Part shown: piece by piece, positions 6,001-35,645 of the stretch
How positions within the stretch are numbered: the first letter of the stretch is position 1
Layout: every line of letters starts with the position of its first letter
Sequence record: NZ_LR134454.1
Origin: a plasmid
DNA length: 64,000 nt
Direction: 5' to 3' (one strand)
Notes under the pieces: generated by a model
What the model saw: only the letters and a program-made list of their open reading frames with translations
Database searches by the model: none
Told to the model about the DNA's origin: nothing
Position numbers and translations under genes: made by a program

Positions 6001-6528
6001 GGCGCGACGAACACGGACGACGCCTTCTGGAACCTGGTGCGGTCGATCGCGACGGTCGGCGCGGCACCGTCGGAGCTGCTGGACCAGACGATCGAGATGA
6101 CCCCCGTCGACCGCGCCGCGGAGGCGATGGTCGAGGTCCTCCGCACGGGCGACGAGCCGCTGCGGACGCTCGAGGTGGGCAGCGGCTCGCGGGTGAGCTG
6201 GCGGGAGATCGTCGGGGCGCTGCGCCGCGGCGGCTATCCCGTCGAGGCGGTGCCGGGGCACGTCTTCCTGGAGCGGCAGACCGCCGCGTTCCGCGACCGG
6301 CCGGAGGTGGCGGGGGCGCTCGCGCGCGCCATTCTGCTCATCCGTGCAGGTCTGGAGCGTGAGACCGTCGGCGAGGGTGGCGGCTGGACCCCGACGAGCG
6401 CCGCCGACGGGCGGATCGGGCTCGACGGTGACCGGGGTCCCGTCGGGGACGCCGGGCTCGACGTCTACGTCGACTACTTGGTGCGCATCGGCTTCCTCCC
6501 GCGCGTGGGGAAAGGGGCCGAGGTGTGA
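1..6528 (+). CDS. Non-ribosomal peptide synthetase, 3' portion (gene starts upstream of the window). Domain order seen: A (C-terminal half) - PCP - E | C - A - PCP - R (terminal thioester reductase).
   Basis: Frame 1 is open from nt 1. Motifs read from the translation: A8/A10 ([26 protein letters not shown]), PCP ([14 protein letters not shown]), epimerase-type [14 protein letters not shown]-domain HHILWDGWS, second A domain ([59 protein letters not shown]), PCP ([14 protein letters not shown]), Rossmann [14 protein letters not shown] of a terminal reductase. TGA at 6526-6528. Confidence 0.9.
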
Positions 6529-6621: not shown

Positions 6622-8466
6622 ATGACGTCAGCCACGATTCCCGGCCTCGAGGGGGATTCGGTCCCCACGAAGCACGCCCAGCTCGTCGAGTGGGTGCGCG
6701 AGGTCGCCGAGCTCACGCAGCCCGACCGCGTGGTGTGGGCCGACGGTTCGGACGCCGAATGGGATCGCCTGACCGCCGAGATGGTCGCCGCGGGCACGTT
6801 CACCAAGCTGAACGACGCGAAGAAGCCCAACTCCTTCCTCGCACTGTCGGACCCGGCGGACGTGGCGCGCGTGGAGTCGCGCACCTACATCTGTTCGGAG
6901 ACCAAGGAGGGCGCGGGCCCGACGAACAACTGGGTCCGTCCCGCCGAGATGCGCGCGACGATGACCGACCTCTACCGCGGCTCGATGCAGGGCCGCACCA
7001 TGTACGTGGTGCCCTTCTGCATGGGCCCGCTGGGCGCCGACGACCCGAAGCTGGGCGTCGAGCTGACCGACAGCCCCTACGTGGTGGTCTCGATGAAGAT
7101 CATGACCCGCATGGGCACCGCGGTGCTGGAGAAGCTGGGCGACGAGGGCTTCTTCGTCAAGGCCATCCACTCCGTGGGCAAGCCGCTCGCGCCGGGCGAG
7201 GCCGACGTGGCGTGGCCCTGCAGCGAGACCAAGTACATCACCCACTTCCCCGAGACCCGCGAGATCTGGTCGTACGGCTCGGGGTACGGCGGCAACGCGC
7301 TGCTGGGCAAGAAGTGCTACGCGCTGCGCATCGCCTCGGCCATGGCGCACGACGAGGGCTGGCTCGCCGAGCACATGCTGATCCTCAAGCTGATCTCGCC
7401 GGAGGACAAGGTCTACTACATCGCCGCGGCGTTCCCGTCGGCCTGCGGTAAGACCAACCTCGCGATGATCCAGCCGACCCTGCCGGGCTGGCGCGCCGAG
7501 ACCGTCGGCGACGACATCGCCTGGATGCGCTTCGGCAAGGACGGCCGCCTGTACGCGGTGAACCCGGAGTTCGGCTTCTTCGGCGTCGCCCCGGGCACGT
7601 CGATGGACTCGAACCCGAACGCGATGAAGACCATCGACGCCGGAAACACCATCTTCACCAACGTCGCCAAGACCGACGACGGCGACGTCTGGTGGGAGGG
7701 CATGTCGGCCGCGCCGCAGCACCTGACCGACTGGCGCGGCGACGACTGGGAGAGCTCCTCCGCCGAGAACGAGGACGGCGTCGTCACCGTCGCCGCGCAC
7801 CCGAACTCGCGGTACACCACCCCGATGTCGCAGTGCCCGTCGATCGCCCCCGAGTGGGACGACCCGCAGGGCGTGCCGATCTCGGCCATCCTGTTCGGCG
7901 GCCGCCGCAAGACGACGGTGCCGCTGGTCACGCAGGCGCGCGACTGGAAGCACGGCGTCTTCATGGGCGCGACCGTCGGCTCGGAGCAGACCGCCGCCGC
8001 CGAGGGCAAGGTGGGCACCGTCCGCCGCGACCCGATGGCGATGCTGCCCTTCCTGGGCTACAACGTGGGCGACTACTTCGACCACTGGCTCACCATCGGC
8101 AAGCAGGCCGACGAGTCGAAGCTGCCGGCCGTGTTCTACGTGAACTGGTTCCGCCGCGGCGAGGACAAGCGCTTCCTGTGGCCCGGATTCGGCGAGAACA
8201 GCCGCGTGCTGAAGTGGATCGTCGACCGCATCGAGGGCAACGCCGCCGGCAAGGAGACGCCGATCGGCATCGTCGCCACCCCGGAGGAGCTGGACCTCAC
8301 CGGCCTGGACACCCCGGTCGCCGACGTCGCCGAGGCGCTGGCCGTGAACGTCGACGAGTGGAAGGGCGAGCTGCCGTCGATCGACGAGTGGTTCGAGTTC
8401 GTCGGCGACAAGCTGCCCACCGGCCTCAAGGACGAGCTGGACGCGCTCAAGCAGCGCCTGGGCTGA
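6622..8466 (+). CDS. pckG: Phosphoenolpyruvate carboxykinase (GTP)
   Basis: Full-length match to GTP-dependent PEPCK (MTSATIPGL... start as in mycobacterial PckA; track ORF begins at an upstream TTG at 6607). GGAGA RBS at 6609-6613. Confidence 0.93.
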
Positions 8467-18812: not shown

Positions 18813-20483
18813 TCAGACCGCGGCGCCGAGGATCCCGTCGAGCGCCCGCGCCATGTCGGCGGCCTCGATCCGCATGAGCACCGCCTCGTCGACCCCGGCC
18901 AGGTCCAGGCCCGAGTCGGCGAGCCGCAGCTCCCGCTCCTCCTCGGCCGCCTCGATGACGTTCCGCACGAACCGGCCGTTGCCCAGGCGGTCGAGCCGGT
19001 CGGCGACGCCGGCGCAGCAGGTCTCCAACACCTCCGCCGCGTCGCCGGTGAGCACCGCGTCGCGCGAGCGGGCCATCGCCGCGCCGATCTCGGCGAGCTC
19101 GCCCGGGCTGTAGCCGGGGAACCGGATGCGGCGCGCGAACCGCGAGGCCAGGCCCTCGTTGGAGCCGAGGAAGCGGTCGATCTCGGCGTCGTAGCCCGCC
19201 ACGATCACGACGAGGCGGTCGCGGTCGTTCTCCATCCGCGCGAGCAGCGTGTCGATCGCCTCCTGCCCGAACGCGTCGCCGCCGCTGAGGCCCTCCTGCA
19301 CCAGCGTGTAGGCCTCGTCGATGAACAGCACCCCGTCGAGCGCGGAGTCGATGACCGCGGAGGTCTTCTGCGCCGTGGCGCCGAGGTACTGCCCGACGAG
19401 GTCGCGGCGCGAGCACTCGACCACGGTGTCGGTCGCCAGTAGCCCCAGCCCGCGGTACATCCGCGCGACGATGCGCGCCACCGTCGTCTTCCCCGTGCCG
19501 GGCGGACCGGTGAAGGCGAGGTGCAGCGACCGGCTCCCGCTCGACAGCCCGCGGTCGGCGCGCACCCGGGCCAGCTGCATCGTCGTCCGCAGCCGGGTGA
19601 CCTGCTCCTTCACCTCGCGCAGCCCGACCTGCCGCTCCAGCTCGTCGGAGGCCGCGGCCAGTAGCTCGTCGCCGGCTTCGGCGGGTGCGTCGTCGGGGGC
19701 GGGCGCGTCCGGGGCGTCGAGCACCAGGCGGTGGCCCGGGTCGCGCAGCGCGGCCTCCGCGGGCGGGTACGACGGTGCCGCCCGCTCCAGCAGTTCGCGC
19801 GCGCGCTCCTCCTCGCCCTGCTCCCGCAGGACGAGGCCGTGGCAGTACCGGGCCGCGGCGGCGGCGCCGGGCACCGGGCCCTCGGCCGCGACGGTCAGCA
19901 GCCGGGTGGCCTCGGCGAACCGGCCGAGTTGCGCCGCGGCGGATCCCGCGATCGTGGCCGCCGCGGCGGCGAGCACCGGGTCGTCCCAGTCGGCGTGCCC
20001 GGCGAGCGCGGTCAGGGCGTCCGGCCACCGTCGGGTCCGGGCGGCGACGACCGCGCGCTGGTAGTGGGCGATCGGGCACGGCGGGGCGCCGTCGAGGGCG
20101 CGCTCGGCCTCGTCGGGCGCACCGTCGGCGAGCAGGCGCGCGGCGTAGGCGACGTGCGCGGTCGCGGCGTCGCGGAGCGGGTAGTCCACGTAGAGGCCGG
20201 TGGCGAAGGTGGAGCTCAGCGCGCCGGGCGCAAGACCCACGCGGCGGGCGGCGGCGCCGATCCCCTCGACGTGGCGGTGCAGTGCGGCGAGCACCTCGGC
20301 GGTGTTCTCGCCGGCCGCGGCGCGGCCCAGCCAGGCGTCGGCCATCCCCGGATCTGCGGTGGTGGCGGCCTCGAAGGCGCGGCGCGCGAGCGCGGGGTCG
20401 GGCGGCCCCGCCTCGAACTCGCCGATCCCGATCCCGAGCGCGGCGACGCCCGCCTGGAACGCGCGGAGCGCAGATGTAGCCAT
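18813..20483 (-). CDS. EccA-like AAA+ ATPase (CbxX/CfxQ family) with N-terminal TPR-like Ala-rich domain
   Basis: Walker A LAFTGPPGTGKTTVARIVA. CbxX-type region VLFIDEAYTLVQ...LVVIVAGYDAEIDRFLGSNEGLASRFARRIRFPGYS. About 280-aa N-terminal helical repeat domain. No ESX genes nearby. Confidence 0.75.
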   Translation of the reverse strand: MATSALRAFQAGVAALGIGIGEFEAGPPDPALARRAFEAATTADPGMADAWLGRAAAGENTAEVLAALHRHVEGIGAAARRVGLAPGALSSTFATGLYVDYPLRDAATAHVAYAARLLADGAPDEAERALDGAPPCPIAHYQRAVVAARTRRWPDALTALAGHADWDDPVLAAAAATIAGSAAAQLGRFAEATRLLTVAAEGPVPGAAAAARYCHGLVLREQGEEERARELLERAAPSYPPAEAALRDPGHRLVLDAPDAPAPDDAPAEAGDELLAAASDELERQVGLREVKEQVTRLRTTMQLARVRADRGLSSGSRSLHLAFTGPPGTGKTTVARIVARMYRGLGLLATDTVVECSRRDLVGQYLGATAQKTSAVIDSALDGVLFIDEAYTLVQEGLSGGDAFGQEAIDTLLARMENDRDRLVVIVAGYDAEIDRFLGSNEGLASRFARRIRFPGYSPGELAEIGAAMARSRDAVLTGDAAEVLETCCAGVADRLDRLGNGRFVRNVIEAAEEERELRLADSGLDLAGVDEAVLMRIEAADMARALDGILGAAV

Positions 20484-21933: not shown

Positions 21934-24506
21934 TGGCGAATCCGATGCGCCGGGTGGCGCTGCGGAACCTCTTGGCGCACAAGGGGCGCCTCGTCCTGAC
22001 GGTGCTCTCGGTGCTGCTGGGCACGTCGTTCATCGCCGGCTCGATGGTCTTCACCGGCACCCTGTCGAAGGCCTTCGACGGGATCTCCGACAAGATCGCC
22101 GTCGGCGTCGACGCGCGCATCTCGCCCGAGAACGCCCAGGGCCAGGGCGGATTCGGCCCGGCCGGCCCGGGCGTGCCGCTCTCCGTCGTGGACCAGGTGA
22201 AGGCGGTGCCGGGCGTGCGCGTCGTCGTTCCGGCCGTCACCGGCACCATCGCCCTGCGCGACGGGAACGGCGACGTCGTCTCGCCCACCGGCGCCCCGCA
22301 GGTCGGCGGCGCGTACCTGCCGCCCGGCGAGAACCTCGACCCCGACGGCCTGAAGATCACCTCGGGGCGGGCGCCGTCCGCCCCGAACGAGATGGTGCTC
22401 AACGAATCCGCCTCCGAACGACTGAAGCTGCCCGTGGGCGCGAAGACCACCATCGTCGCGCCGCACTCGCCCGGCCCGACCGACGTGACGATCGTGGGGC
22501 TGTACACGATCTCCACCGACTCCGGCGGCTACCTGGGCGCGCTGTTCGCGAAGGACGAGGCGCAGAAGCTCTTCGGCGACGGCGCGACCGCCCCCTACAT
22601 CGAGGTCGGTGCCGCACAGGGCACCTCGCCAGAGCAGCTGCGCGACGCCCTCGCCGAGCGCCTGCCCGACCTGAACGTGCAGACGGGCGCGGAGGTGCGG
22701 CAGGAGTTCGAGGACACGATCAACCAGGGCCTGAGCTTCCTCAACTACTTCCTCGTCGCCTTCGGCCTCATCGGGCTCCTCGTGGGCGTCTTCATCATCT
22801 ACAACACCTTCTCGATGCTCGTGGCGCAGCGGCTCTCCGAGCTCGCGCTGCTCCGCGCCATCGGCGCCGGACGCGAGCAGGTGCGCAACTCGGTGGTGCT
22901 GGAGGCGCTCGTCGTGGGCGTGGTCGGCAGCGCGCTGGGGCTCGCCGTCGGCATCGGCCTCGCGGTGCTGCTGCGCGCCGGCGTCACCGCCGCGGGCGCG
23001 GGCTTCCCCGACGGCGGCCTCGCCGTGAGCCCGTCCGTGGTGATCACGGTGATGGTGGTCGGCACCGTCGTCACGGTGATCTCCGCCCTCATCCCCGCCG
23101 TGCGCGCCTCCCGGGTGCCGCCCGTCGCCGCGATGCGCGCCCAGGACGGTGGCTCCGCGCAGTCGCTGCTCGTCCGCGGCGCGGTCGGCGCGGCCCTGCT
23201 GCTGTGCTCGCTGGCGCTGCTCTTCGTGGCGACCACCGAGGTCGGCTCCACCGCCGCGATCGAGGTGGGCATCGCCGGCTTCGGGTTGATCCTCGCTATC
23301 GTGATCGGCGGCCCCGCGCTGGTGGCGCCGCTGCTCGGCGGCATCGGCAAGGTCATCGCCGCCCCCTTCGGGCCCGCGGGCCGGCTGGGCCGCACCAACG
23401 TGATGCGGAACCCGCAGCGCACCACCGCCACCGCCTTCGCGCTGGTGATCGGCGTGGCGCTGGTCGGCGTCATCGGCACACTCGGCGCGTCGATGCAGAA
23501 GTCGGTCGACGCGCAGGTCGATCAGGGCATCCGCTCCGACCTCATGTTGCAGGCGCCGTCGCTCGGCATGCCGCCGGCCGCCCTCACGGCGATCAAGGAC
23601 GTCCCCGGCGTCGGCACCAAGACCATCCTCTACGGGGTGCCGGTGCGGATCGGCGGCGACCGGCTCAGCGCCCTCGGGGTCGACGGTGACATCACCACCG
23701 CGTTCAACCTCACCCGGACGGCGGGCGAGCTGACGCTGAAACAGGGCGGGCTGCTCGTCGACGACCGCACGGCCCGCGAACGCGGCTGGGACGTGGGCAC
23801 CGAGGTCGAGCCGGCGTCCGCCGTCGGCGCCGCGAAGGCGAAGCTCGCGGTGACCGGGATCTACTCCGCCACCGGCGGTTCGCTGTCCGGCCCCGTGATC
23901 ACCGCCGCCGACATGAACACCCTGTATCCGCCCGCGAGCGGCGCCACCGCCCCGCTCGTCTCGCCGCAGTCGGTGTTCGTCGACGCCGCCGACGGCACGT
24001 CGGTGAGCGATCTCAAGGAGCGCCTGCGTGAGGCCGTGAAGCCGTTGCTCGTGGTCAACGTCGACGACCAGGACGACCTCAAGGATCAGGCGGGGCAGGC
24101 GATCACGGCGCTCATGGGCGTGCTGTACGGGTTGCTCGGCCTCGCGGTGGTGATCGCGATCCTCGGCATCGTCAACACGCTGGCGCTGTCGGTCGTCGAG
24201 CGCCGCCGCGAGATCGGGATGCTCCGCGCGATCGGCCTCATCCGCTCGCAGGTGCGCCGCTCGATCTACCTGGAGTCCATGCTCATCGCGGTCTTCGGCG
24301 CCGCGCTGGGGCTGGTGCTCGGGGTGCTGCTGGGCGTCTCGCTCGTGCACGCGCTGCGTGACGAGGGCCTCGGTTCCGTGGTGGTGCCGTGGTCCACGGT
24401 GATCGTCATGCTGGTCGCGTCCGCATTCGTCGGCGTCGGGGCGGCGATCCTGCCCGCCATCCGCGCCGCCCGCACGCCCCCGCTCGCCGCGATCGCGGAG
24501 GGTTGA
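21933..24506 (+). CDS. ABC transporter permease, FtsX/MacB family with two FtsX domains
   Basis: ATGA overlap with the ATPase stop. N-terminus MANPMRRVALRNLLAHKGRLVLTVLSVLLG. Two 4-TM FtsX-like blocks separated by large extracytoplasmic loops. Confidence 0.85.
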   Translation: MANPMRRVALRNLLAHKGRLVLTVLSVLLGTSFIAGSMVFTGTLSKAFDGISDKIAVGVDARISPENAQGQGGFGPAGPGVPLSVVDQVKAVPGVRVVVPAVTGTIALRDGNGDVVSPTGAPQVGGAYLPPGENLDPDGLKITSGRAPSAPNEMVLNESASERLKLPVGAKTTIVAPHSPGPTDVTIVGLYTISTDSGGYLGALFAKDEAQKLFGDGATAPYIEVGAAQGTSPEQLRDALAERLPDLNVQTGAEVRQEFEDTINQGLSFLNYFLVAFGLIGLLVGVFIIYNTFSMLVAQRLSELALLRAIGAGREQVRNSVVLEALVVGVVGSALGLAVGIGLAVLLRAGVTAAGAGFPDGGLAVSPSVVITVMVVGTVVTVISALIPAVRASRVPPVAAMRAQDGGSAQSLLVRGAVGAALLLCSLALLFVATTEVGSTAAIEVGIAGFGLILAIVIGGPALVAPLLGGIGKVIAAPFGPAGRLGRTNVMRNPQRTTATAFALVIGVALVGVIGTLGASMQKSVDAQVDQGIRSDLMLQAPSLGMPPAALTAIKDVPGVGTKTILYGVPVRIGGDRLSALGVDGDITTAFNLTRTAGELTLKQGGLLVDDRTARERGWDVGTEVEPASAVGAAKAKLAVTGIYSATGGSLSGPVITAADMNTLYPPASGATAPLVSPQSVFVDAADGTSVSDLKERLREAVKPLLVVNVDDQDDLKDQAGQAITALMGVLYGLLGLAVVIAILGIVNTLALSVVERRREIGMLRAIGLIRSQVRRSIYLESMLIAVFGAALGLVLGVLLGVSLVHALRDEGLGSVVVPWSTVIVMLVASAFVGVGAAILPAIRAARTPPLAAIAEG

Positions 24507-24594
24507 GTCCCCGCGCGTTCCGAAAGTCGAATTCTCCGGGGCGGCGCGCCGAATGCTGTCGCCGTGCGCCGCAGGACTCGACTTTCGGAAGGCG

Positions 24595-24621
24595 TGTCAC
24601 AGATCGCGCGCGGCCGGTGTC
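24595..24621 (+). promoter_or_regulatory. Candidate ECF41-type promoter: TGTCACA - 16 nt - TGTC
   Basis: TGTCACA at 24595-24601, a 16-nt spacer, TGTC at 24618-24621, about 40 nt upstream of the oxidoreductase start codon. Matches the published ECF41 target consensus TGTCACA-N16-CGTC with one change. Confidence 0.4.
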
Positions 24622-24660
24622 CCATGTGCGGAAGACTCGAATTCGCATGAGGAGGCAATC

Positions 24661-25701
24661 ATGAAGGTCGTCGTGATCGGCGCGGGCTACGCGGGCACCA
24701 TCGCCGCGAATCGGCTGGTGAAGAAGGCGGACGCGGAGGTGACCGTGGTCAACCCGCGGCCCGGGTTCGTCGAGCGGGTGCGACTGCACGAGCACATCGC
24801 GGGCAGCGGCACGGTCGTCACGCCGCTCACCGAGATGCTGGACCCGCGGATCCGCCTGGTCGTCGGCTCCGTCGACAAGATCGGCGACGGCACGCTGCTC
24901 CTCGCCGACGGCACCTCCCTCCCCTTCGACCGCGCGATCTACGCCGCGGGCGGGGCGCCGACGGCACCGTCGGGCGCCTTCGCGGTGGGCGCGCTCGAGA
25001 CGGCGGAGGAGGCGCACCGGGCGCTGTCCGCCCTGCCCGACGGGGCCGGCGTCACCGTCGTCGGCGGGGGCCTGACCGGCATCGAGACCGCGGCCGAGGT
25101 CGCCGAATCCCGCCCCGGCCTGCGGGTACGACTGCTCAGCGAGGGCGAGGTCGGGGCGTCGCTCGGGCCCGGCGCGCGGGCGCGGGTCCGGCGCGAGCTC
25201 GACCGCCTCGGCGTCGTGGTGGAGCGCGGCCGGTTCGACGGCGCCGACGGTGCCGACCTCGTGCTGTGGGCCATCGCGACCCAGGTCAGCGACCTCGCGG
25301 CGCGCAGCGGCCTCGCCGTCGACGACGCCGGGCGCGTGATCGTCGACGAGTTCCTGCGCAGCGTCTCCGACCCGCGGATCGTCGCGGTGGGCGACGGTGC
25401 CGCCGTCCCCGGCGCACGGTTGAGCTGCCAGACCGCGCTGCCCCAGGGCGCGCACGGTGCGGACAACCTGGCCCGGGAGGTCGCGGGGAAGCGGGCGAAG
25501 CCGTACTCGATGGGCTACACCGGGCAGAACGTCTCGATCGGCCGGAGGAGCGCGGTGATCCAGGCCGCCCGGCGCGACGACACCCCCACCCGCCTCCAGT
25601 TCGGCGGGCGCTCCGCGGCGCTGGTCAAGGAGCAGGTCTGCAGGGTGGCCAAGGGAGCCGCCAGGACCGCGCGCTACGCCTGGTTGCCCGCGCCGCGATG
25701 A
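24661..25701 (+). CDS. FAD/NAD(P)-dependent oxidoreductase (pyridine nucleotide-disulfide / NDH-2-like)
   Basis: GAGGAGG RBS. N-terminal dinucleotide-binding motif MKVVVIGAGYAGTIAANRL and a second Rossmann TVVGGGLTGIETAAEV. Confidence 0.8.
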   Translation: MKVVVIGAGYAGTIAANRLVKKADAEVTVVNPRPGFVERVRLHEHIAGSGTVVTPLTEMLDPRIRLVVGSVDKIGDGTLLLADGTSLPFDRAIYAAGGAPTAPSGAFAVGALETAEEAHRALSALPDGAGVTVVGGGLTGIETAAEVAESRPGLRVRLLSEGEVGASLGPGARARVRRELDRLGVVVERGRFDGADGADLVLWAIATQVSDLAARSGLAVDDAGRVIVDEFLRSVSDPRIVAVGDGAAVPGARLSCQTALPQGAHGADNLAREVAGKRAKPYSMGYTGQNVSIGRRSAVIQAARRDDTPTRLQFGGRSAALVKEQVCRVAKGAARTARYAWLPAPR

Positions 25702-26567
25702 GTGCCGAGGAGCTCTTCGCCGGGCATCGCGCGCTGCTGTTCTCCGTGGCGTACGAGATCCTGGGCAGCGTCGCGGACGCGGAGGACGTGCTGCAGGAGA
25801 GTTACCTGCGGTGGCGCGAGGTGGACCTCGACACCGTCGAGAACCCGCGGGCGTACCTGGCGCGCATCGTGACCCGGCAGGCGCTCAACGCCCTGCGGGC
25901 CGCATCGCGGCGGCGGGAGGAGTACGTGGGGCCGTGGCTGCCGGAGCCGCTGGAGGCACCGACGGGCGACGCGCCGGCCGAGCACGTGCTCACGGGCGAG
26001 GCGGTGACCACGGCGATGCTGCTGGTCCTGGAATCGCTGACGCCCACCGAGCGCGCGGTCTTCGTGCTGCGGGAGGTCTTCGATTTCGGCTACCCCGAGA
26101 TCGCCGAGGCCGTCGGCAAGAGCGAGGCGACGGTGCGCCAGACGGCGCACCGCGCCCGCGGGCACGTGCGGGCCCGGCGACCGCGGGAGGTCGTGGATCC
26201 GGCGCAGGCGCAGGGCGTCGCCGAGCGGTTCGTGCTGGCGGCGGCGACGGGGGACGTGCAGGCGCTCATGGACCTCCTGGCGCCCGACGTCGTGTACCTG
26301 GGCGACGGCGGCGGGGTGGTCTCGGCCGCGCGGCGGCCGGTGCAGGGCGCGGACCGGGTGGCCCGGTTCGTCGCTGGGCTGTTCCGGAAGAGCGCCACGA
26401 TGGGGGAGCTCGGGCTGCGGTTCGCGGTCTACAACGGCATGCCGGCGATGGTCGTGACGTTCGACGGGGTGGTCGACCAGGTCACCTGCATCGAGGTCGA
26501 CGGTGGCGCGGTGACCGGCGTGTACACGGTGCGCAATCCGGACAAGTTGCGGCGAGTCATCGGATGA
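25698..26567 (+). CDS. ECF sigma factor, group ECF41 (SigJ-like) with SnoaL-like C-terminal extension
   Basis: ATGA overlap with the oxidoreductase. Sigma-70 regions 2 and 4. ECF41 signature motifs YVGPWLPEP, DGGG and C-terminal NPDKL are all present. Confidence 0.85.
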   Translation: MSAEELFAGHRALLFSVAYEILGSVADAEDVLQESYLRWREVDLDTVENPRAYLARIVTRQALNALRAASRRREEYVGPWLPEPLEAPTGDAPAEHVLTGEAVTTAMLLVLESLTPTERAVFVLREVFDFGYPEIAEAVGKSEATVRQTAHRARGHVRARRPREVVDPAQAQGVAERFVLAAATGDVQALMDLLAPDVVYLGDGGGVVSAARRPVQGADRVARFVAGLFRKSATMGELGLRFAVYNGMPAMVVTFDGVVDQVTCIEVDGGAVTGVYTVRNPDKLRRVIG

Positions 26568-26954
26568 CTACGGTAGGTCGGTGAACAGCGGTTCCCGCCA
26601 CCGAGGTACGGAATCGTTCACTAACTTTGTCGCCTTTGCGGCATTCCGTACGCGCGAAGTCTGAGTCGAACGGCGCGCTAATGAATGTGCGACCGCAAAC
26701 CTGTGACTGACGTGCTACTCCACTAAAGGCTCTCGACCTGCATGTTTGCTGGCGATTGTGATGCCAGTCACGAAACGATAACGGTTGCATTTCGAAACGG
26801 ATTTGCTACTGCCAGGTAGTGAATCCTGTGATTAATCTTCGCGGTGATCGAGGGTGACCACCGTTCCTTATCAGCGAGTGAACTCCCTCAGTCATCCGAT
26901 CGCCGCCGACCCCCAGGCGCGTGGATCGTCACGTGAAGAACCCAGGAGAGACCT

Positions 26955-29057
26955 ATGCGTGCTGCCACCCTGCCCACGAACACCGCGCCCGTCGGAGGCA
27001 CCCCGTTCAGCTGGAGCCGGACGGGGGTGATCACCCAGGCGCTGGCCGCGACCGTCCTCGCCGGCTCGCTGACGCTCACCGCCATGCCCTCGTCGAGCTT
27101 CCAGCTGCCGTCCCCCGCGCAGGTGCTCGCCGTGCCCGCGGCGGCGGCCCCACTGCGCATGGACGTGCAGATGACGAGCATCATCGACCTGCTGCCTCCA
27201 GGGGCGATCGCGGCGATGCTGGAGGACACCAGCTCGCAGAAGCTCGCCGACGCGATGGCACTGACGAATCCGGCGAAGGTCGCCGACATCATGTCGCGCA
27301 TGGACCCGGCCAAGACCGCCAAGATCCTCGAGGCGATGCCCGCCGACAAGGTCGTCGCGATCATGAACCTGATGGACGAGAAGAAGCTGACGGCCATCGT
27401 CAACGGCCTGCCGCAGAACAAGCTCAACACCATCGTCGCGGGCCTGTCCCAGGACAAGCTCAACGCGGTGGTCAAGGCGATCCCCGAGGCCAAGCTCATC
27501 GAGGTGGTCAAGAGCCTCGACGACGCCACCCTCGGCAAGATCGTCGGCGCGCTGCCGACGGATCGCCTCGTCACCATCGTCTCCGGCCTCGATCAGCAGA
27601 AGCTCAAGGACCTCGTCGGGGGCATTCCCGCCGACGTCCTCGGCCCCGTGGTCGGAAGCCTCCCGGACGACAAGCTGGCGGCACTCGTCGGGCAGATCCC
27701 CGTCGACAAGCTGGGCGCGGTCGTCGCGACCCTCCCGCCCGCGACCATCGCCAAGCTGGTCGAGGGCCTGCCGACGTCCGTGCTGACCGAGGTGATCGGC
27801 ACCGTCGACCCCGCGAAGATCGGTCCCGCCGTCGCCGGTCTGTCGAACGACAAGCTCGCCGCCCTGGTCGGCTACATTCCGACCGACAAGCTGGCCGCCG
27901 TGGTCTCGGGCTTCGACGAGAAGAAGCTGGGCGAGATCGTCGGCCTCATCCCGGTCGAGAAGCTCGGCCCCGTGGTCGCCGGCCTGCCCGCCGACAAGCT
28001 GACCGCACTGGTCAAGCAGATCCCCGTCGAGAAGCTCATCACCGTGGTCTCGGGCCTCGACGACAAGACCCTCAGCGAGCTGGTCAACGGCATCCCGGTC
28101 GAGAAGCTCGGCCCGATCGTCGCGGGCCTGCCGACCGAGAAGCTCATCCAGCTGGTCGGATCCATCGACTCCGAGAAGCTCAAGGCGATCGTCGGCGGCC
28201 TGCCCGACGACAAGCTGCTCGACATCATGGACGGCCAGCTCATCGGCCGCGTGGTCTCGCTGGTCGTCGCGAGCCTCGGCACCCCGGGCGGCATCGCCAA
28301 GCTGCCCGACCTGCTCACCGGCGTCGTCAGCGGCGCCGTCTCGGGCGGCGCGCAGCTCGTGCCGAACCTCGTCGCGAACATCCCGCTGGTCGGCCCGGTC
28401 ATCGCCGGACCGATCCAGCTGGTCACGAACGCCGTGGTGGTGCCCGCGGTGAACCTCGGCCTGAGCCTGCTGCAGCCGGTGTTCTCGCTGATCGCCACCG
28501 TCGTCTCGCTGCCGGTCTCTCTGGCGACGTCGGTCATCGGAGGCGGCGGCCTGACGGACCTGTTCGGTGAGGTGACGAAGGGGCTCGCGGGTCTCGCCGG
28601 AACCGACGCCGCGAAGTCCCTCGACGTCGCCGCGAAGTCGCTCACCGCCGACGCGAAGCCGGAGGCGGCATCGCTGCTCGCGACCGCGGCCGCGCCCGCT
28701 GCGGAGGACGAGGCCGCCGCAGCCGGCGCCGCCGAGAAGGCGAAGGACGCCGAGACCGCCTACGTCGGCAAGCACCGCGCCGACGACAGCGAGGCGGCCG
28801 ATCCGGTGACCGTCGCGCCGACGACGGCCGAGCCGACCGACGCCGCCCCGGCGACGGAATCCGCTCCGGAGACCGTCACGGAGGCCGCTCCCGCGACCGA
28901 GGACGCCCCTGAGGACGCCCCCGAGGAGGAGGCGGCCCCCGCTGAGACGCCGGCCGCCGCGGAGACCGCCGCTCCGGCACCCGCCGAGGAGACGGCGGAC
29001 GCTGCGGACGCTGCCGCCGCCGACGAGGACGCGTCCACCACTGCCGACGCCGCCTGA
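26955..29057 (+). CDS. Secreted/membrane-anchored tandem-repeat protein: signal-like N-terminus, 28 x 12-aa repeats, Gly/Val-rich hydrophobic segment, acidic Ala/Pro/Glu/Thr tail
   Basis: GGAGAG RBS before the ATG at 26955. Hydrophobic segment ITQALAATVLAGSLTLTA. Residues 96-431 are a 12-residue unit K-L-x-x-[IVL]-V-x-x-[LI]-[PD]-x-[DE] repeated 28 times. C-terminal 150 aa are acidic low complexity. Confidence 0.7.
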   Translation: MRAATLPTNTAPVGGTPFSWSRTGVITQALAATVLAGSLTLTAMPSSSFQLPSPAQVLAVPAAAAPLRMDVQMTSIIDLLPPGAIAAMLEDTSSQKLADAMALTNPAKVADIMSRMDPAKTAKILEAMPADKVVAIMNLMDEKKLTAIVNGLPQNKLNTIVAGLSQDKLNAVVKAIPEAKLIEVVKSLDDATLGKIVGALPTDRLVTIVSGLDQQKLKDLVGGIPADVLGPVVGSLPDDKLAALVGQIPVDKLGAVVATLPPATIAKLVEGLPTSVLTEVIGTVDPAKIGPAVAGLSNDKLAALVGYIPTDKLAAVVSGFDEKKLGEIVGLIPVEKLGPVVAGLPADKLTALVKQIPVEKLITVVSGLDDKTLSELVNGIPVEKLGPIVAGLPTEKLIQLVGSIDSEKLKAIVGGLPDDKLLDIMDGQLIGRVVSLVVASLGTPGGIAKLPDLLTGVVSGAVSGGAQLVPNLVANIPLVGPVIAGPIQLVTNAVVVPAVNLGLSLLQPVFSLIATVVSLPVSLATSVIGGGGLTDLFGEVTKGLAGLAGTDAAKSLDVAAKSLTADAKPEAASLLATAAAPAAEDEAAAAGAAEKAKDAETAYVGKHRADDSEAADPVTVAPTTAEPTDAAPATESAPETVTEAAPATEDAPEDAPEEEAAPAETPAAAETAAPAPAEETADAADAAAADEDASTTADAA
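27240..28247 (+). repeat. In-frame 36-bp (12-codon) tandem repeat array, about 28 units, coding
   Basis: Units AAGCTC..(x)..GAC such as aagctcgccgacgcgatggcactgacgaatccggcg / aaggtcgccgacatcatgtcgcgcatggacccggcc. Each unit begins with a K-L codon pair and ends with an acidic residue. Confidence 0.8.
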
Positions 29058-29128: not shown

Positions 29129-29895
29129 TCAGCGCTTGCGGAAGACCAGGACCAGGTTCGACACGAGCAGCTCCCGCAGGCCCGGGACGCGGACCATCCA
29201 CCACGCCCACGACGGGTGGTAGCGCGGGAACGCCGCGACGAGCTCCGCGCCGTCGACGGTGGCGGCCCAGCCCAGCCCGTCCGCCGCGCCCACCTTGAAC
29301 AGCGACGTGCCGTAGAGGTTCTTCGGCGGGTGCCCGTGTTTACGCGTGTACATCCGGGCGGCGCGCTCGCCGCCGAGGTAGTGGGTCAGTCCCATCTCGT
29401 GCCCGCCGAACGGGCCGTACCAGAGGGTGTAGCTCAGGATCACCATGCCGCCCGGGCGGGTGACGCGCAGCATCTCCTCGCCCATGGCCCGCCAGTCGCG
29501 CACGTGCTCGGCGACGTTGGACGAGAGGCAGACGTCGACGGCACCGTCGGCGATGGGGAGCGCCAGGCCCGAGCCCCGCAGGCCCCGCGACGACGTGATG
29601 CCGGCGGCGTGCGCCTCCGACGCGTCGGGCTCGACGGGCACGTAGACGGCGCCGTGCTCGGCGAAGGCGTCCTCGAAGTAGCCGGGCCCGCCGCCGACGT
29701 CGAGGACGAGGGCGCCGTCGAGGTCCCCGAACAGGTCGCCGGTCAGCTCGACGGTGTCGCGGGCCAGCGAGCCGTAGAAGCGCGCGGGCTCGGACTGCTC
29801 GAACCGGAAGTCGGACAGCAGCCCGACCGAGCGGCGCAGGGTGGCGCGCCGCCGCAGCCGTGCCGTCGCGTTCTTCCAGGTAGAGGGGTACACGT
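29129..29895 (-). CDS. Class I SAM-dependent methyltransferase
   Basis: SAM-binding LVLDVGGGPGYF. Start set at the GTG at 29895, because the track's ATG at 29953 would overlap the divergent GT4 start at 29919. The start is uncertain. Confidence 0.65.
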
Positions 29896-29918: not shown

Positions 29919-31061
29919 GTGCGTGAAGTCCTCCTGCTGTGTTGGCGTGACACCCGCCACCCTCAGGGCGGCGGCAGCGAGCTGTACCTCGAGCGCGTCG
30001 GCGAGGAGCTGGCCGCCCGCGGGGTGCGCGTCACGCTGCGGACCGCGATGTACCCCGGCGCGGCCCGGTCCGAGACCGTGCGCGGCGTGCACCTCTCCCG
30101 CGGTGGCGGCCGCTTCACCGTCTACCCCCTGGCGCTGATCGCCATCCTCCTCGCACGGTTCGGGCGCGGTCCGCTGCGCGGGATCCGCCCCGACGCGGTG
30201 ATCGACACCCAGAACGGCATCCCGTTCTTCGCGCGGCTCGTCGCGGGCGTGCCCGTGACGGTGCTCGTGCACCACTGCCATCGCGAGCAGTGGCCCGTCG
30301 CGGGACGCCTCGTGGCGCGGATCGGCTGGTTCATCGAGTCGCGGCTCTCGCCGTGGCTGCACCGGCGCTCCCAGTACCTCACCGTCTCGCTGCCCTCGGC
30401 GGAGGAGCTGGCGCTGCTCGGCGTCGGCGCGGAGCGGGTGGCCGTGGTGCGCAACGGGATCGATGCGGTGGCCCCGGGCGTCGCGGACGTGCGGTCCGCG
30501 TCGCCGCGCATCGTCGTGCTCTCGCGGCTCGTGCCGCACAAGCAGATCGAGGACGCCCTCGACGTGCTCGCCCGCCTGGGCCGTCGCGTCCCCGACCTGC
30601 ACCTCGACGTCATCGGCAGCGGCTGGTGGGACTCCGAGCTGTACGCGCACGCCGCGAAGCTCGGCGTCCTCGACCGCGTGACCTTCCACGGCCACGTCAC
30701 CGAGCAGCGCAAGCACCGGCTGCTCTCCCGCGCGTGGGTGCACGTCATGCCGTCGCGCAAGGAGGGCTGGGGCATCACGGTGATCGAGGCGGCCCAGCAC
30801 GCGGTGCCGACCGTCGGGTACGTCTCGTCGCGCGGGCTCACCGACTCCGTGGTCGACGGTGCCACCGGGCTGCTGGTCCGCGACCTCGCAGGCCTCACCG
30901 AATCGGTGTACACGCTGCTGAGTGACGCTCTGCTGCGGGAGGAGCTCGGCGCGAAGGCGCAGGAGCGGGCGGGGGAGTTCTCCTGGCCCGCCACCGCCGA
31001 CGGCGTCTCCCGCGTCCTGGCCGCGTCCGTCGCCGGGGAGCGCGTCGGCGGGCTCGTCTGA
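29919..31061 (+). CDS. Glycosyltransferase family 4 (GT-B, GT1-like)
   Basis: GT4 C-terminal domain with the E-x7-E-type region PSRKEGWGITVIEAAQHAVPTVGY. 380 aa. Confidence 0.8.
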   Translation: MREVLLLCWRDTRHPQGGGSELYLERVGEELAARGVRVTLRTAMYPGAARSETVRGVHLSRGGGRFTVYPLALIAILLARFGRGPLRGIRPDAVIDTQNGIPFFARLVAGVPVTVLVHHCHREQWPVAGRLVARIGWFIESRLSPWLHRRSQYLTVSLPSAEELALLGVGAERVAVVRNGIDAVAPGVADVRSASPRIVVLSRLVPHKQIEDALDVLARLGRRVPDLHLDVIGSGWWDSELYAHAAKLGVLDRVTFHGHVTEQRKHRLLSRAWVHVMPSRKEGWGITVIEAAQHAVPTVGYVSSRGLTDSVVDGATGLLVRDLAGLTESVYTLLSDALLREELGAKAQERAGEFSWPATADGVSRVLAASVAGERVGGLV

Positions 31062-32137: not shown

Positions 32138-33813
32138 GTGGCTGAAACTTCAGGGCGGCGCCCTGCGATTCTGACCGTCGACGACGATCCGAGCGTGTCC
32201 CGCGCGGTGGCGCGGGATCTGCGGCGCAAGTACGGCGACGAGTACCGCATCGTCCGCGCGGAGAGCGGCGAACAGGCGCTGGAGGCGCTCAAGGAGCTCA
32301 AGCTCCGCGGCGACCTGGTGGCCGCGATCCTCGCCGATTACCGCATGCCGCAGATGACGGGCCTCGAATTCCTCGAGGCCGCGATGGACGTCTACCCGGG
32401 CGCCCGGCGGCTGCTGCTCACCGCGTACGCGGACACGGGCGCCGCGATCGAGGCGATCAACGTGGTCGACCTCGACCACTACCTCCTCAAGCCCTGGGAC
32501 CCGCCGGAGGAGAAGCTCTACCCCGTCATCGACGCGCAGCTGGAGGCCTGGCTCTGCAGCGACCACCGGCCCGTGCCGGAGACGAAGGTCGTCGGGCACC
32601 GCTGGTCGGCCCGCTCGTCGGAGGTTCGGGAGTTCCTGGCCCGCAACCAGATCCCGTACCGCTGGTACACCGCCGAGTCGCCCGAGGGGCAGCGCCTCCT
32701 CGCCGCCGCGGGCAGCGACGGCCAGCAGCTCCCGCTCGTCGCCGCGGCCGACGGGACCGCGCTGTGCGCACCGTCGGACAGCGAACTGGCGGCCCACGTG
32801 GGCCTGAACACCACCCCGTCGGAGGAGTTCTACGACCTGGTCGTCGTCGGCGCGGGCCCGGCCGGGCTCGGCGCCGCCGTGTACGGCGCGTCCGAGGGGC
32901 TGCGGACGGTGCTCGTCGAGCGGTCCGCGACCGGCGGGCAGGCGGGGCAGAGCTCGCGCATCGAGAACTACCTGGGCTTCCCCGACGGGGTCTCGGGCAC
33001 CCAGCTCACCGACCGGGCGCGGCGGCAGGCGACCAAGTTCGGCGCCGAGATGATCACCGCCGCCGACGTCGTCGAGCTCGAGGTGACGGGCTCCGGCCGG
33101 CGGGTGCGGTTCTCCGACGGCACCGTCGTGGGGGCGCACACCGTCATCCTCGCGACGGGCGTCGCGTACCGGCAGCTGGACGCGCCGGGCATGGCGCGGC
33201 TCACGGGCGCCGGGATCTTCTACGGCTCGGCGATGACCGAGGCGCCGGCCTGCGCCGGCCAGGACGTCTACATCGTCGGCGGCGCCAACTCCGCGGGCCA
33301 GGCCGCGGCGTACCTGTCGAAGGGCGCGCGCTCGGTGACCCTGCTGGTGCGGGGGCCGTCGCTCGAGGCGTCGATGTCGTATTACCTCATCCAGCAGCTG
33401 AACGCGATCGAGAACGTGCACGTGCGGCCGCACACCCAGGTGGTCGAGGCGCACGGCGACGACCACCTCACACAGCTCACCCTGCGGGACACCGAGTCGG
33501 GCGCGACGGAGCAGGTCCCGGCGGACTTCCTGTTCGTCTTCATCGGCGCCGAACCGCGCACGGACTGGCTCGACGGCGTCGTCGCGCGGGACGGGCGGGG
33601 CTTCCTGCTGACGGGCCCGGATCTCGCGCTCGACGGTGCCGCGCCCCGGGGATGGGAATTGGACCGGCCGCCGTTCCACCTGGAGTCGAGCGTCCCCGGC
33701 ATCTTCGTCGCCGGCGACGTCCGGTCCGAATCGGCGAAGCGCGTCGCCTCCGCGGTGGGCGAGGGCGCGATGGCCGTCATGTTCGTCCACCGCTATCTGG
33801 AAGGAGTCGACTC

Positions 33814-33817
<4 letters not shown>
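32138..33817 (+). CDS. Response-regulator receiver domain fused to a thioredoxin-reductase-like FAD/NAD(P) oxidoreductase
   Basis: REC domain (ILTVDDDPSVSRAV...LADYRMPQMTGLEFL...LLLTAYAD) followed by a TrxB-like domain (DLVVVGAGPAGLGAAVYGA, GGQAGQSSRIENYLGFP). The canonical CAxC redox motif reads CAGQ, i.e. a single Cys. Confidence 0.85.
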
Positions 33818-35294
<1,477 letters not shown>

Positions 35295-35298
<4 letters not shown>

Positions 35299-35645
35299 GC
35301 GAACCGACCGACCCGATCGATCCGACGGTGCCGCCCAGCGGCGCCGGGTGCGTGGAGTGCGACGCCGCCGGCGGCTGGTGGGTGCACCTGCGCCGCTGCG
35401 CGAAGTGCGGCCACATCGGCTGCTGCGACTCCTCGCCGTCGCAGCACGCGAGCGCCCACGCCCGCGCGAGCGGCCATCCCATCGTGCAGAGCTTCGAGCC
35501 CGGCGAGGCCTGGTTCTGGGACTACGTCTCCGAGGACTACTACGACGGTCCGCTGCTCGCCGACCCGCAGAACCGGCCCGTCGACCAGGCCGTGCCCGGC
35601 CCCGCGGGACGCGTGCCCGCCGACTGGCGGAACCACGTGCACTGA
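35295..35645 (+). CDS. UBP-type zinc-finger (zf-UBP) domain protein
   Basis: ATGA overlap with the kinase. Cys/His pattern CVECD...[34 protein letters not shown] typical of zf-UBP. Confidence 0.7.

Follow-up and report, generated by a model that had tools for sequence, protein, structure and literature searches.

A Tsukamurella protein built around a predicted rod of about 30 MgtE_N-type helical units, and its possible place in the cell envelope

A 64,000-nucleotide stretch of the plasmid sequence record NZ_LR134454.1 (the whole of it is called the window hereafter) contains a gene of the genus Tsukamurella, at positions 26955–29057, whose product consists largely of consecutive 12-residue units. 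What kind of protein is this, and on which side of the cytoplasmic membrane does it act? A preliminary description, made from the letters alone, had regarded it as a secreted repeat protein encoded next to an ECF41 sigma operon, with an architecture that belongs to no described family. As judged by profile matching, the repeat is a member of the known family MgtE_N (PF03448). According to a structural model, the protein is predicted to be one uninterrupted rod of about 30 single-helix units, that is, roughly 3.7 MgtE_N/FliG-ARM-like domains placed end to end. It is an unusual arrangement of a known fold, and neither a new fold nor a new kind of system. What is new here is the length of the array, the fixed number of its units, the genus-specific N- and C-terminal modules, and a cap that occurs in two forms.

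The repeat gene is genuine and is under purifying selection. Its open reading frame, with 700 residues on the + strand, is as first described, and the NCBI annotation has the identical gene call in GCA_900104775.1 (contig FNSA01000003.1). The sequence AGGAGA at 26944–26949, 5 nt upstream of the ATG, is a likely ribosome-binding site, and this AGGAGA-ATG layout is kept across the orthologs. The G+C content at third codon positions (GC3) is 0.946 for the whole coding sequence and 0.94 for codons 1–71, while the three frames of the DNA ahead of it are all at about 0.55; this places the translation start at 26955 or in its immediate vicinity. Met69 was also considered as a start, further downstream, and was rejected, based on the Ile or Val found there in several orthologs, the GC3 of codons 1–71, and the conserved AGGAGA-ATG. 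The coding sequence and the modules of its product are as follows, where pLDDT is the per-residue confidence score of the model and omega is the dN/dS ratio.

26955–29057, + strand: coding sequence, 700 amino acids plus stop codon (open reading frame, GC3, purifying selection)
26955–27083, + strand: signal-peptide-like N-terminus, residues 1–43 (Kyte–Doolittle scan; present in all six orthologs)
27084–27158, + strand: Pro/Ala/Ser-rich linker, residues 44–68, with an invariant PAAAAPLR (ortholog alignment; pLDDT <50)
27159–28274, + strand: predicted continuous MgtE_N/FliG-ARM-like superhelix, residues 69–440 (AlphaFold2 model)
28311–28556, + strand: uncharged Gly/Pro/Val/Leu-rich segment, residues 453–534, 82 residues (omega 0.15–0.43; pLDDT <50)
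28557–29054, + strand: acidic Ala/Thr/Pro/Glu-rich tail, residues 535–700 (38 D/E against 8 K/R; 60 Ala)

Three features characterize the array. One is its regularity: residues 96–431 (27240–28247) form 28 units of exactly 12 residues without any insertion or deletion (indel), and with two degenerate units ahead (residues 72–95) and one or two behind, the total including these caps is 30–31 units. The column counts among the 28 units (K1 in 22, L2 in 23, I/V/L5 in 26, V6 in 22, L/I9 in 21, P10 in 16 or D10 in 8, and D/E12 in 15) agree with the unit number and the consensus K-L-x-x-V-V-x-x-L-P-x-D that had been proposed. Another is that the period is far stricter than the sequence. The residue identity is 0.307 at a lag of 12 (z 14.7) and 0.366 at a lag of 24 (z 19.1), as compared with 0.085 ± 0.015 in 2000 shuffles, and the values at lags 11 and 13 are at the background level; the mean identity between units, however, is only 30–38% for the protein and about 52–57% for the DNA. 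Thus, the term "near-perfect" used in the preliminary description holds for the 12-residue period and not for the sequence, and the 36-bp DNA period was detected only in part: Tandem Repeats Finder (TRF) reported partial arrays with periods of 36 bp (2 copies), 72 bp (3.2 copies), and 144 bp (2.3 copies). The last feature is a higher order within the array, where the identities between units are higher at lags of 2 and 4 units than at odd lags. It is most clearly found in the following segment.

27815–28146, + strand: higher-order DNA repeat with a period of 144 bp (4 units), 2.3 copies, 76% matches (TRF)

This repeat marks how the array grew, namely through duplicated blocks of four units. 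Elsewhere in the 64-kb window, none of the modules of the protein was found to have a paralog.

The array matches Pfam MgtE_N in four stretches, with 122.5 bits against a cut-off of 25.9 (E 1.3e-35), and this was the sole Pfam domain found in the protein. The FliG domains stayed below their thresholds (FliG_M 21.5 against 25, FliG_N 15.6 against 25, and FliG_C 14.2 against 23.3), no CBS or MgtE channel domain was detected in the Pfam scan, and the MgtE channel model TIGR00400 gave 27.6 bits against a cut-off of 232.75, by its N-domain part only. For the N-terminal 72 residues and the C-terminal 276 residues, Pfam gave nothing. In the AlphaFold2 model, for which a rough alignment including distant relatives was the input, residues 69–440 form 31 helices of 8–10 residues, one per unit, with pLDDT values of about 88–96, while the values are below 50 at residues 1–66 and 463–530; no helix is longer than about 21 residues, and none is predicted as a long coiled coil. 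The alpha-solenoid that had been suspected for the array is therefore predicted with high confidence, and the superhelix of short helices resembles the solved MgtE N domain. A Foldseek search against the PDB and viral models gave only generic armadillo and ankyrin solenoids (TM-score ≤0.25) and was uninformative, and sequence searches of the PDB, using the protein or an ortholog profile, returned only non-significant matches (E 0.09–0.6), with FliG and MgtE chains at the top. The earlier impression of an undescribed family does not hold for the repeat, which belongs to PF03448, while it holds for the architecture as a whole.

How widely does this architecture occur, and is the number of units variable? 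Orthologs were found in five further species, T. ocularis, T. sputi, T. sp. M9C, T. conjunctivitidis, and T. pseudospumae. The gene order is identical in all six: ABC permease, oxidoreductase, sigJ, repeat gene, methyltransferase (on the opposite strand), and GT4 glycosyltransferase. The whole architecture, consisting of the signal-like N-terminus, the rod, the 82-residue uncharged segment, and the acidic tail, was found only in Tsukamurella, and as far as the searches reach, the gene appears to be confined to this genus. An exhaustive HMMER scan of 1.84 billion representatives gave 157 matches at E ≤ 0.001, most of which are distant, with the close relatives present only as short fragments; the non-fragment matches show 16–33% identity in the repeat region only. 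There was no match outside Tsukamurella for the N-terminal region, the uncharged segment, or the tail. A protein homology search of a clustered collection, with the full protein or residues 1–560, gave none at E ≤ 0.001, and a tblastn search of plasmid and phage records with the rod gave no match. MgtE_N was matched in 40 of 49 sequences, comprising the query, five close fragments, and 43 distant relatives. The clustered protein collection lacks the exact protein although it is encoded in an NCBI assembly, and since the family is represented among the 1.84 billion entries only by fragments of 65–217 residues, it is effectively invisible to routine searches there.

The number of units is fixed. 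Across residues 72–560, no indel occurs among the six species, at dS values of 0.3–0.56, and all carry the same number of units. For units 6–30, the identity to the orthologs is 91–92% in four species and 77% in T. pseudospumae, and dN/dS is about 0.11–0.19 among the five closer species and 0.3–0.45 against T. pseudospumae. Within the unit, variation is absent at positions 2 and 6, rare at positions 5 and 9, and greatest at positions 4, 7, 8, 11, and 12, a pattern that fits a packed solenoid. The absence of indels and the position-by-position conservation point to an old array, each unit of which is individually constrained. It had been suggested that the copy number could vary between strains, and the equal unit number in six species speaks against this. 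A contingency repeat, which would expand and contract by slippage or recombination, might be imagined from the long regular array and from the 144-bp repeat with 76% matches, which records a past block duplication. Yet, given the lack of indels over such divergence, a DNA identity between units of just about 52–57%, and the conservation of units by position, we consider it very improbable.

One part of the rod departs from this constancy.

27168–27347, + strand: hypervariable N-terminal cap, units 1–5, residues 72–131, in two forms among the six species (L002–L006, about 6214–6393)

One form of the cap is found in this genome and T. conjunctivitidis, and the other is found in the remaining four species. 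The identity is 80% within a form and 43–45% between forms; the between-form dN is about 0.55–0.63, with omega of 0.76–1.55, and 7–11 of the 12 columns are variable in each of units 1–4. The grouping of the species by cap differs from that by residues 1–71 and from that by the neighbouring genes. The discordance between the cap and residues 1–71 indicates that the gene is a mosaic, and these data suggest recombination or diversifying selection at the N-terminal tip.

Whether the rod lies inside or outside the membrane depends on how its flanks are read. At the N-terminus, an n-region with R2 and R22 is followed by an uncharged 19-residue h-region, VITQALAATVLAGSLTLTA (residues 25–43), and the next 24 residues (44–67) also carry no charge. 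The best 12-residue Kyte–Doolittle mean here is 1.9, at residue 25, with two basic residues ahead. The 19-residue mean of the h-region, computed by hand, is about 1.56, just below the usual membrane-helix cut-off of 1.6, and the scan flagged no N-terminal window; in this respect, the segment resembles a cleavable signal peptide more than a stable anchor. A candidate cleavage site is L-T-A↓M-P, with Leu at position −3, and position −1 is Thr in three species. The stretch F18–P45 is largely invariant in the orthologs, and omega is 0.12–0.69 for codons 18–52 and about 1 for codons 1–17. Other routes of export and anchoring were considered and rejected. There is no twin-arginine motif, which excludes a Tat signal, and no Cys anywhere in the protein, which excludes a lipoprotein. 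No LPXTG-type end of a sortase substrate is present either; the nearest string, KLPDLLTG (449–456), is mis-spaced and is followed by the uncharged segment of about 80 residues and the 166-residue acidic tail.

On the other side of the array, the composition agrees with the Gly/Val-rich hydrophobic segment and the acidic tail that were initially noticed. Residues 432–534 contain 21 V, 17 L, and 14 G among 103 residues, and the uncharged segment holds a GxxxGxxxG run (456–464) and a transmembrane-grade core, PVFSLIATVVSLPVSLATSVIGG (508–530; 28476–28544). This segment has no Pfam match, and the scan of the 1.84 billion representatives yielded no relative of it outside Tsukamurella. The acidic tail is very likely disordered; the isoelectric point (pI) is 4.05 for the tail and 4.8 for the rod. 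It is remodelled in every species, with a variable length, many indels, and 26–46% identity to the orthologs. The tail of T. pseudospumae (L006, about 7800–8262) has a roughly tenfold tandem repeat of its own, with about 7 copies of TDPKTEDAAK and 3 copies of AAAAKAKDAD. The motif YVGKHR(A/V)(D/E), of which YVGKHR occupies residues 603–608 (28761–28778), is kept in 5 of the 6 species and may be a processing or recognition site.

The reading we favour, to which we give about an even chance when it is taken as a whole, is that of an exported, envelope-anchored, rod-shaped scaffold with a variable distal tip. The N-terminal 43 residues would act as a Sec-type signal and place the rod outside the cytoplasmic membrane, and the uncharged segment 453–534, with its core at 508–530, would hold the C-terminal end of the rod in a membrane. 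The rod would serve in the cell envelope as a rigid spacer and protein-binding scaffold; its length would be about 10 nm, as estimated from the three helices per turn in the superhelix of phage Gp22. Its free N-terminal tip (units 1–5) would be an exposed, fast-diversifying contact end, and the acidic tail would form a disordered extension.

Several points make export of the rod plausible. The basic residues precede a 19-residue uncharged stretch, no charged residue occurs in the next 24, and this N-terminal segment is conserved in all orthologs while the first 17 codons drift. Signal peptides and cell-wall-binding domains also occur among the distant relatives. Using a crude rule, we found a classical signal peptide in 31 of 136 full-length distant relatives, and in 6 of these the array is accompanied by both a membrane helix at the C-terminus and a basic tail; some relatives carry cell-wall-binding SLH domains, and the C-terminus of one (P0007) appears OmpA-like by eye. 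Most of the cytoplasmic relatives lack such an N-terminal segment. Furthermore, MotE, FlbB, and FlgY are established cases of MgtE_N domains that function in the periplasm (PMC13023049). Finally, a hypervariable tip on a rod anchored at its C-terminus fits an exposed structure.

Other points weigh against export or leave the topology ambiguous. The cleavage site is weak, with the above-mentioned Leu and Thr, and the export call was made with hand-made rules. In MgtE and FliG, the two proteins with this fold that have been characterised best, it works on the cytoplasmic side. The charges flanking the 508–530 core are nearly neutral (0 on the N side and −1 on the C side), so that the positive-inside rule leaves the orientation unfixed. 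The Pro/Gly-rich 82-residue segment, with its low pLDDT, may form 0, 1, or 2 membrane spans.

Some of these points are shared by an alternative in which the rod is cytoplasmic, the N-terminus is no export signal, residues 508–530 cross the membrane once, and the acidic Thr/Pro-rich tail lies outside, possibly O-glycosylated. Besides the precedent of MgtE and FliG, about 105 of the 136 distant relatives have no signal peptide by the same crude rule, the h-region is moderately hydrophobic with no 19-residue window reaching 1.6, and the flanking charges of 508–530 very slightly favour an inside location of the N side. Ala/Pro/Thr-rich, acidic, species-variable tails are common in surface-exposed segments of mycolate actinobacteria, which also counts for an outside tail. 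However, this alternative leaves unexplained both the conserved 19-residue uncharged segment after Arg and the two-form hypervariable cap with omega of about 1, and it requires that a 166-residue tail with a net charge of about −30 cross from a C-terminal anchor, which would be unusual. We regard it as possible, but only tentatively so.

If the favoured reading of an exported scaffold is right, the constant number of units may have a further meaning. The protein could be an envelope-spanning ruler or tether, which would be anchored in the cytoplasmic membrane, would reach across a periplasm-like space with a rod of fixed length (30 units), and would bring its diversifying N-terminal tip into contact with the mycomembrane, with the cell wall, or with a partner outside the cell, for instance a phage. 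In that case, the constant unit number would reflect selection on physical length, as in the periplasm-spanning length-determining proteins of Gram-negative bacteria. We consider this extension unlikely.

Another role would fit either topology. By analogy with the part of MgtE that senses Mg2+ in the cytoplasm, the regularly spaced acidic residues at unit positions 10–12 might bind Mg2+ or Ca2+, and the rod would be a divalent-cation module for buffering or sensing. The membership in the MgtE_N family, the occurrence of D/E12 in 15 and D10 in 8 of the 28 units, and the low pI values of the rod and tail are in its favour. On the other hand, neither a CBS pair nor an MgtE channel domain is present (TIGR00400 27.6 against 232.75), and the Mg2+ sites of MgtE are located mostly at domain interfaces and not inside the repeat. 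Position 12 is the most variable among species (72% of columns), which is a misfit with a conserved ligand site, and in FliG and FlgY/FlbB the fold serves purely for protein–protein contact. A cation-binding role consequently seems improbable to us.

Comparison with known systems gives the same picture of a known fold in an unusual arrangement: the protein is not an MgtE channel, a FliG, an E-ring protein, an ECF41 regulon member, a sortase substrate, or a member of the Gp22 class, because, for each of these, defining features were looked for and not found. In MgtE (PDB 8gpv, 2oux, and 2yvx), a single cytoplasmic N domain with about 10 helices precedes a CBS pair and a channel of five helices, whereas the Tsukamurella protein is predicted to have a rod of about 30 helices without CBS or channel, and has in addition the signal-like N-terminus, the uncharged C-terminal segment, and the acidic tail. 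With respect to the ARM motifs of FliG (PDB 8umd, 3hjl, and 4fq0), it is sub-threshold for all FliG domains, and the locus contains no flagellar genes, the neighbours being genes for an ABC transporter, an oxidoreductase, SigJ, a methyltransferase, and a GT4 glycosyltransferase. The E-ring proteins MotE, FlbB, and FlgY (COG3334) combine a signal peptide or membrane helix with an MgtE_N-type domain and form an extracytoplasmic structural scaffold; within their 170–260 residues, one long coiled-coil helix leads to a single small ARM-like head with four members (PMC13023049). Their genes belong to flagellar clusters (fliJ/fliK and others), and the proteins assemble around the MS-ring. In contrast, the Tsukamurella protein has 700 residues, about 30 units, no coiled coil, non-flagellar neighbours, and a different C-terminal module. 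Nevertheless, these proteins are a characterised precedent for exported MgtE_N domains.

The long arm of Gp22 of the Clostridioides difficile phage CDHS-1 (PDB 7qlr) is described as a right-handed superhelix of 29 short helices, three to a turn, which are connected by loops of 1–3 residues. A tblastn search of phage records detected no sequence relationship between Gp22 and the Tsukamurella protein, in which the features that define the Gp22 type are lacking. By analogy, the likely mode of action is most like the extracytoplasmic scaffolding of the E-ring and the structural arm of Gp22. The signal-peptide-bearing MgtE_N arrays of other bacteria (for example, P0005, P0010, P0049, P0125, and P0133) have the 12-residue unit in common with the Tsukamurella array at 20–28% identity. 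Several of them have a clear signal peptide, and some also have a C-terminal membrane helix and a basic tail. They differ in lacking the Tsukamurella N-terminal region, the uncharged Gly/Pro/Val segment, and the acidic tail, and none has been named or characterised.

Helices of the MgtE_N/FliG type are familiar from small domains in the cytoplasm; their occurrence in the periplasm, in the heads of flagellar E-ring proteins, is a more recent finding. In the present case, a mycolate actinobacterium without flagella appears to have about 30 such units joined in a single rod, which comes with a signal-like N-terminus, an uncharged, anchor-like segment of an unusual kind, and an acidic tail that evolves rapidly. 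Should the rod lie outside the membrane, it would be a candidate structural element of the Tsukamurella envelope and a tractable case of selection on repeat number, and hence on length; the variable tip, with its two forms, could have a bearing on how this opportunistic pathogen interacts with phages or its host. Should it be cytoplasmic, the protein would be no more than an exceptionally long representative of a known domain family. Tsukamurella itself is non-motile.

The remaining question is how the gene is transcribed, for which two regions are relevant.

26568–26954, + strand: leader between sigJ and the repeat gene, 387 bp (GC 0.51–0.60, as compared with about 0.72 nearby)
24595–24621, + strand: near-consensus ECF41-type promoter TGTCACA-N16-TGTC, upstream of the oxidoreductase–sigJ operon (conserved in all six species)

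Two parts of the preliminary description were borne out here, namely that the gene has its own lower-GC leader and that it adjoins an ECF41 operon. The sigma factor encoded directly upstream is of the SigJ/ECF41 type (TIGR02957, 359.8 bits against a cut-off of 323). The oxidoreductase gene (24661–25701) and sigJ (25698–26567) overlap by 4 nt and form one operon with the common >COE>>ECF> layout. The blocks of the leader that are conserved in the six species are GTCACG (26767–26772), TTGCAT (26785–26790), a CTAC-N6-GTAG inverted repeat (26806–26819), and the palindrome GATTAATC with a candidate −10 sequence TAATCT (26830–26838). The hexamer TAnnCT is present in all six species and could be a −10 box, and the inverted repeat and the palindrome (26806–26838) could be regulator binding sites. 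In T. pseudospumae, the counterpart of GATTAATC is GGCTAGCC, which is likewise palindromic. No promoter was found in the leader by a sigma-70 consensus scan, an Rfam search of the leader gave nothing at or near the gathering score (best 20.6 bits against 40, E 0.059), and a consensus fold of the leader had no covariation support (term −0.13).

The ECF41 promoter consensus is TGTCACA-N16-CGTC (PMC3426412). When 24400–27000 was searched for TGTCACA-N16(±1)-CGTC with ≤2 mismatches, it was found only at 24595, and none was found in the leader of the repeat gene. In the other five species, the motif is not conserved in the leaders; a single isolated 2-mismatch match was found in T. ocularis (L002, 5918). 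The dependence on the adjacent ECF41 sigma that had been envisaged thus gained no sequence support. Because the only ECF41 motif found lies ahead of the oxidoreductase gene, and because the leader has conserved blocks of its own, a promoter within the leader is the simplest reading, and in the scaffold model favoured above, transcription would start from this leader and not from the ECF41 promoter. One point weighs against this. Nothing resembling a terminator was detected in the interval from sigJ to the repeat gene, which would permit read-through from the ECF41 operon. The gene could then be a member of the SigJ regulon, either by such read-through or by a divergent promoter of the ECF41 type within the leader. 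This is compatible with the fact that sigJ and the repeat gene adjoin each other in the same orientation in six species, and with the conserved GTCAC core at 26767 in the leader. The occurrence of the motif at 24595 only, the unshared nature of the T. ocularis match, and the leader's own blocks count against it, and ECF41 sigmas have been reported to control only their own COE/ECF operon (PMC3426412). We therefore regard regulation by the adjacent sigma as unlikely.

Several neighbouring genes may be mentioned. Directly downstream of the repeat gene is a divergent pair, a methyltransferase (29129–29893, − strand) and a GT4 glycosyltransferase (29919–31061, + strand), which are 93–97% identical across species and are far more conserved than the repeat gene. 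The sizes and arrangement of this pair presumably recall those of Rv0224c/Rv0225 of M. tuberculosis. At 18816–20483 (− strand), 6.5 kb upstream of the repeat gene, an EccA-type type VII secretion AAA ATPase is encoded (TIGR03922, 488.9 bits against 466.65); the 22-kb locus that was read showed no further ESX core genes. Finally, further downstream, in the region of about 32138–35300 (L001, 15184–18691), a gene for a fusion of a response-regulator domain with a pyridine-nucleotide-disulfide oxidoreductase precedes genes for a protein containing cNMP-binding and HATPase_c domains and for a zf-UBP protein, which together are an unusual signalling trio.

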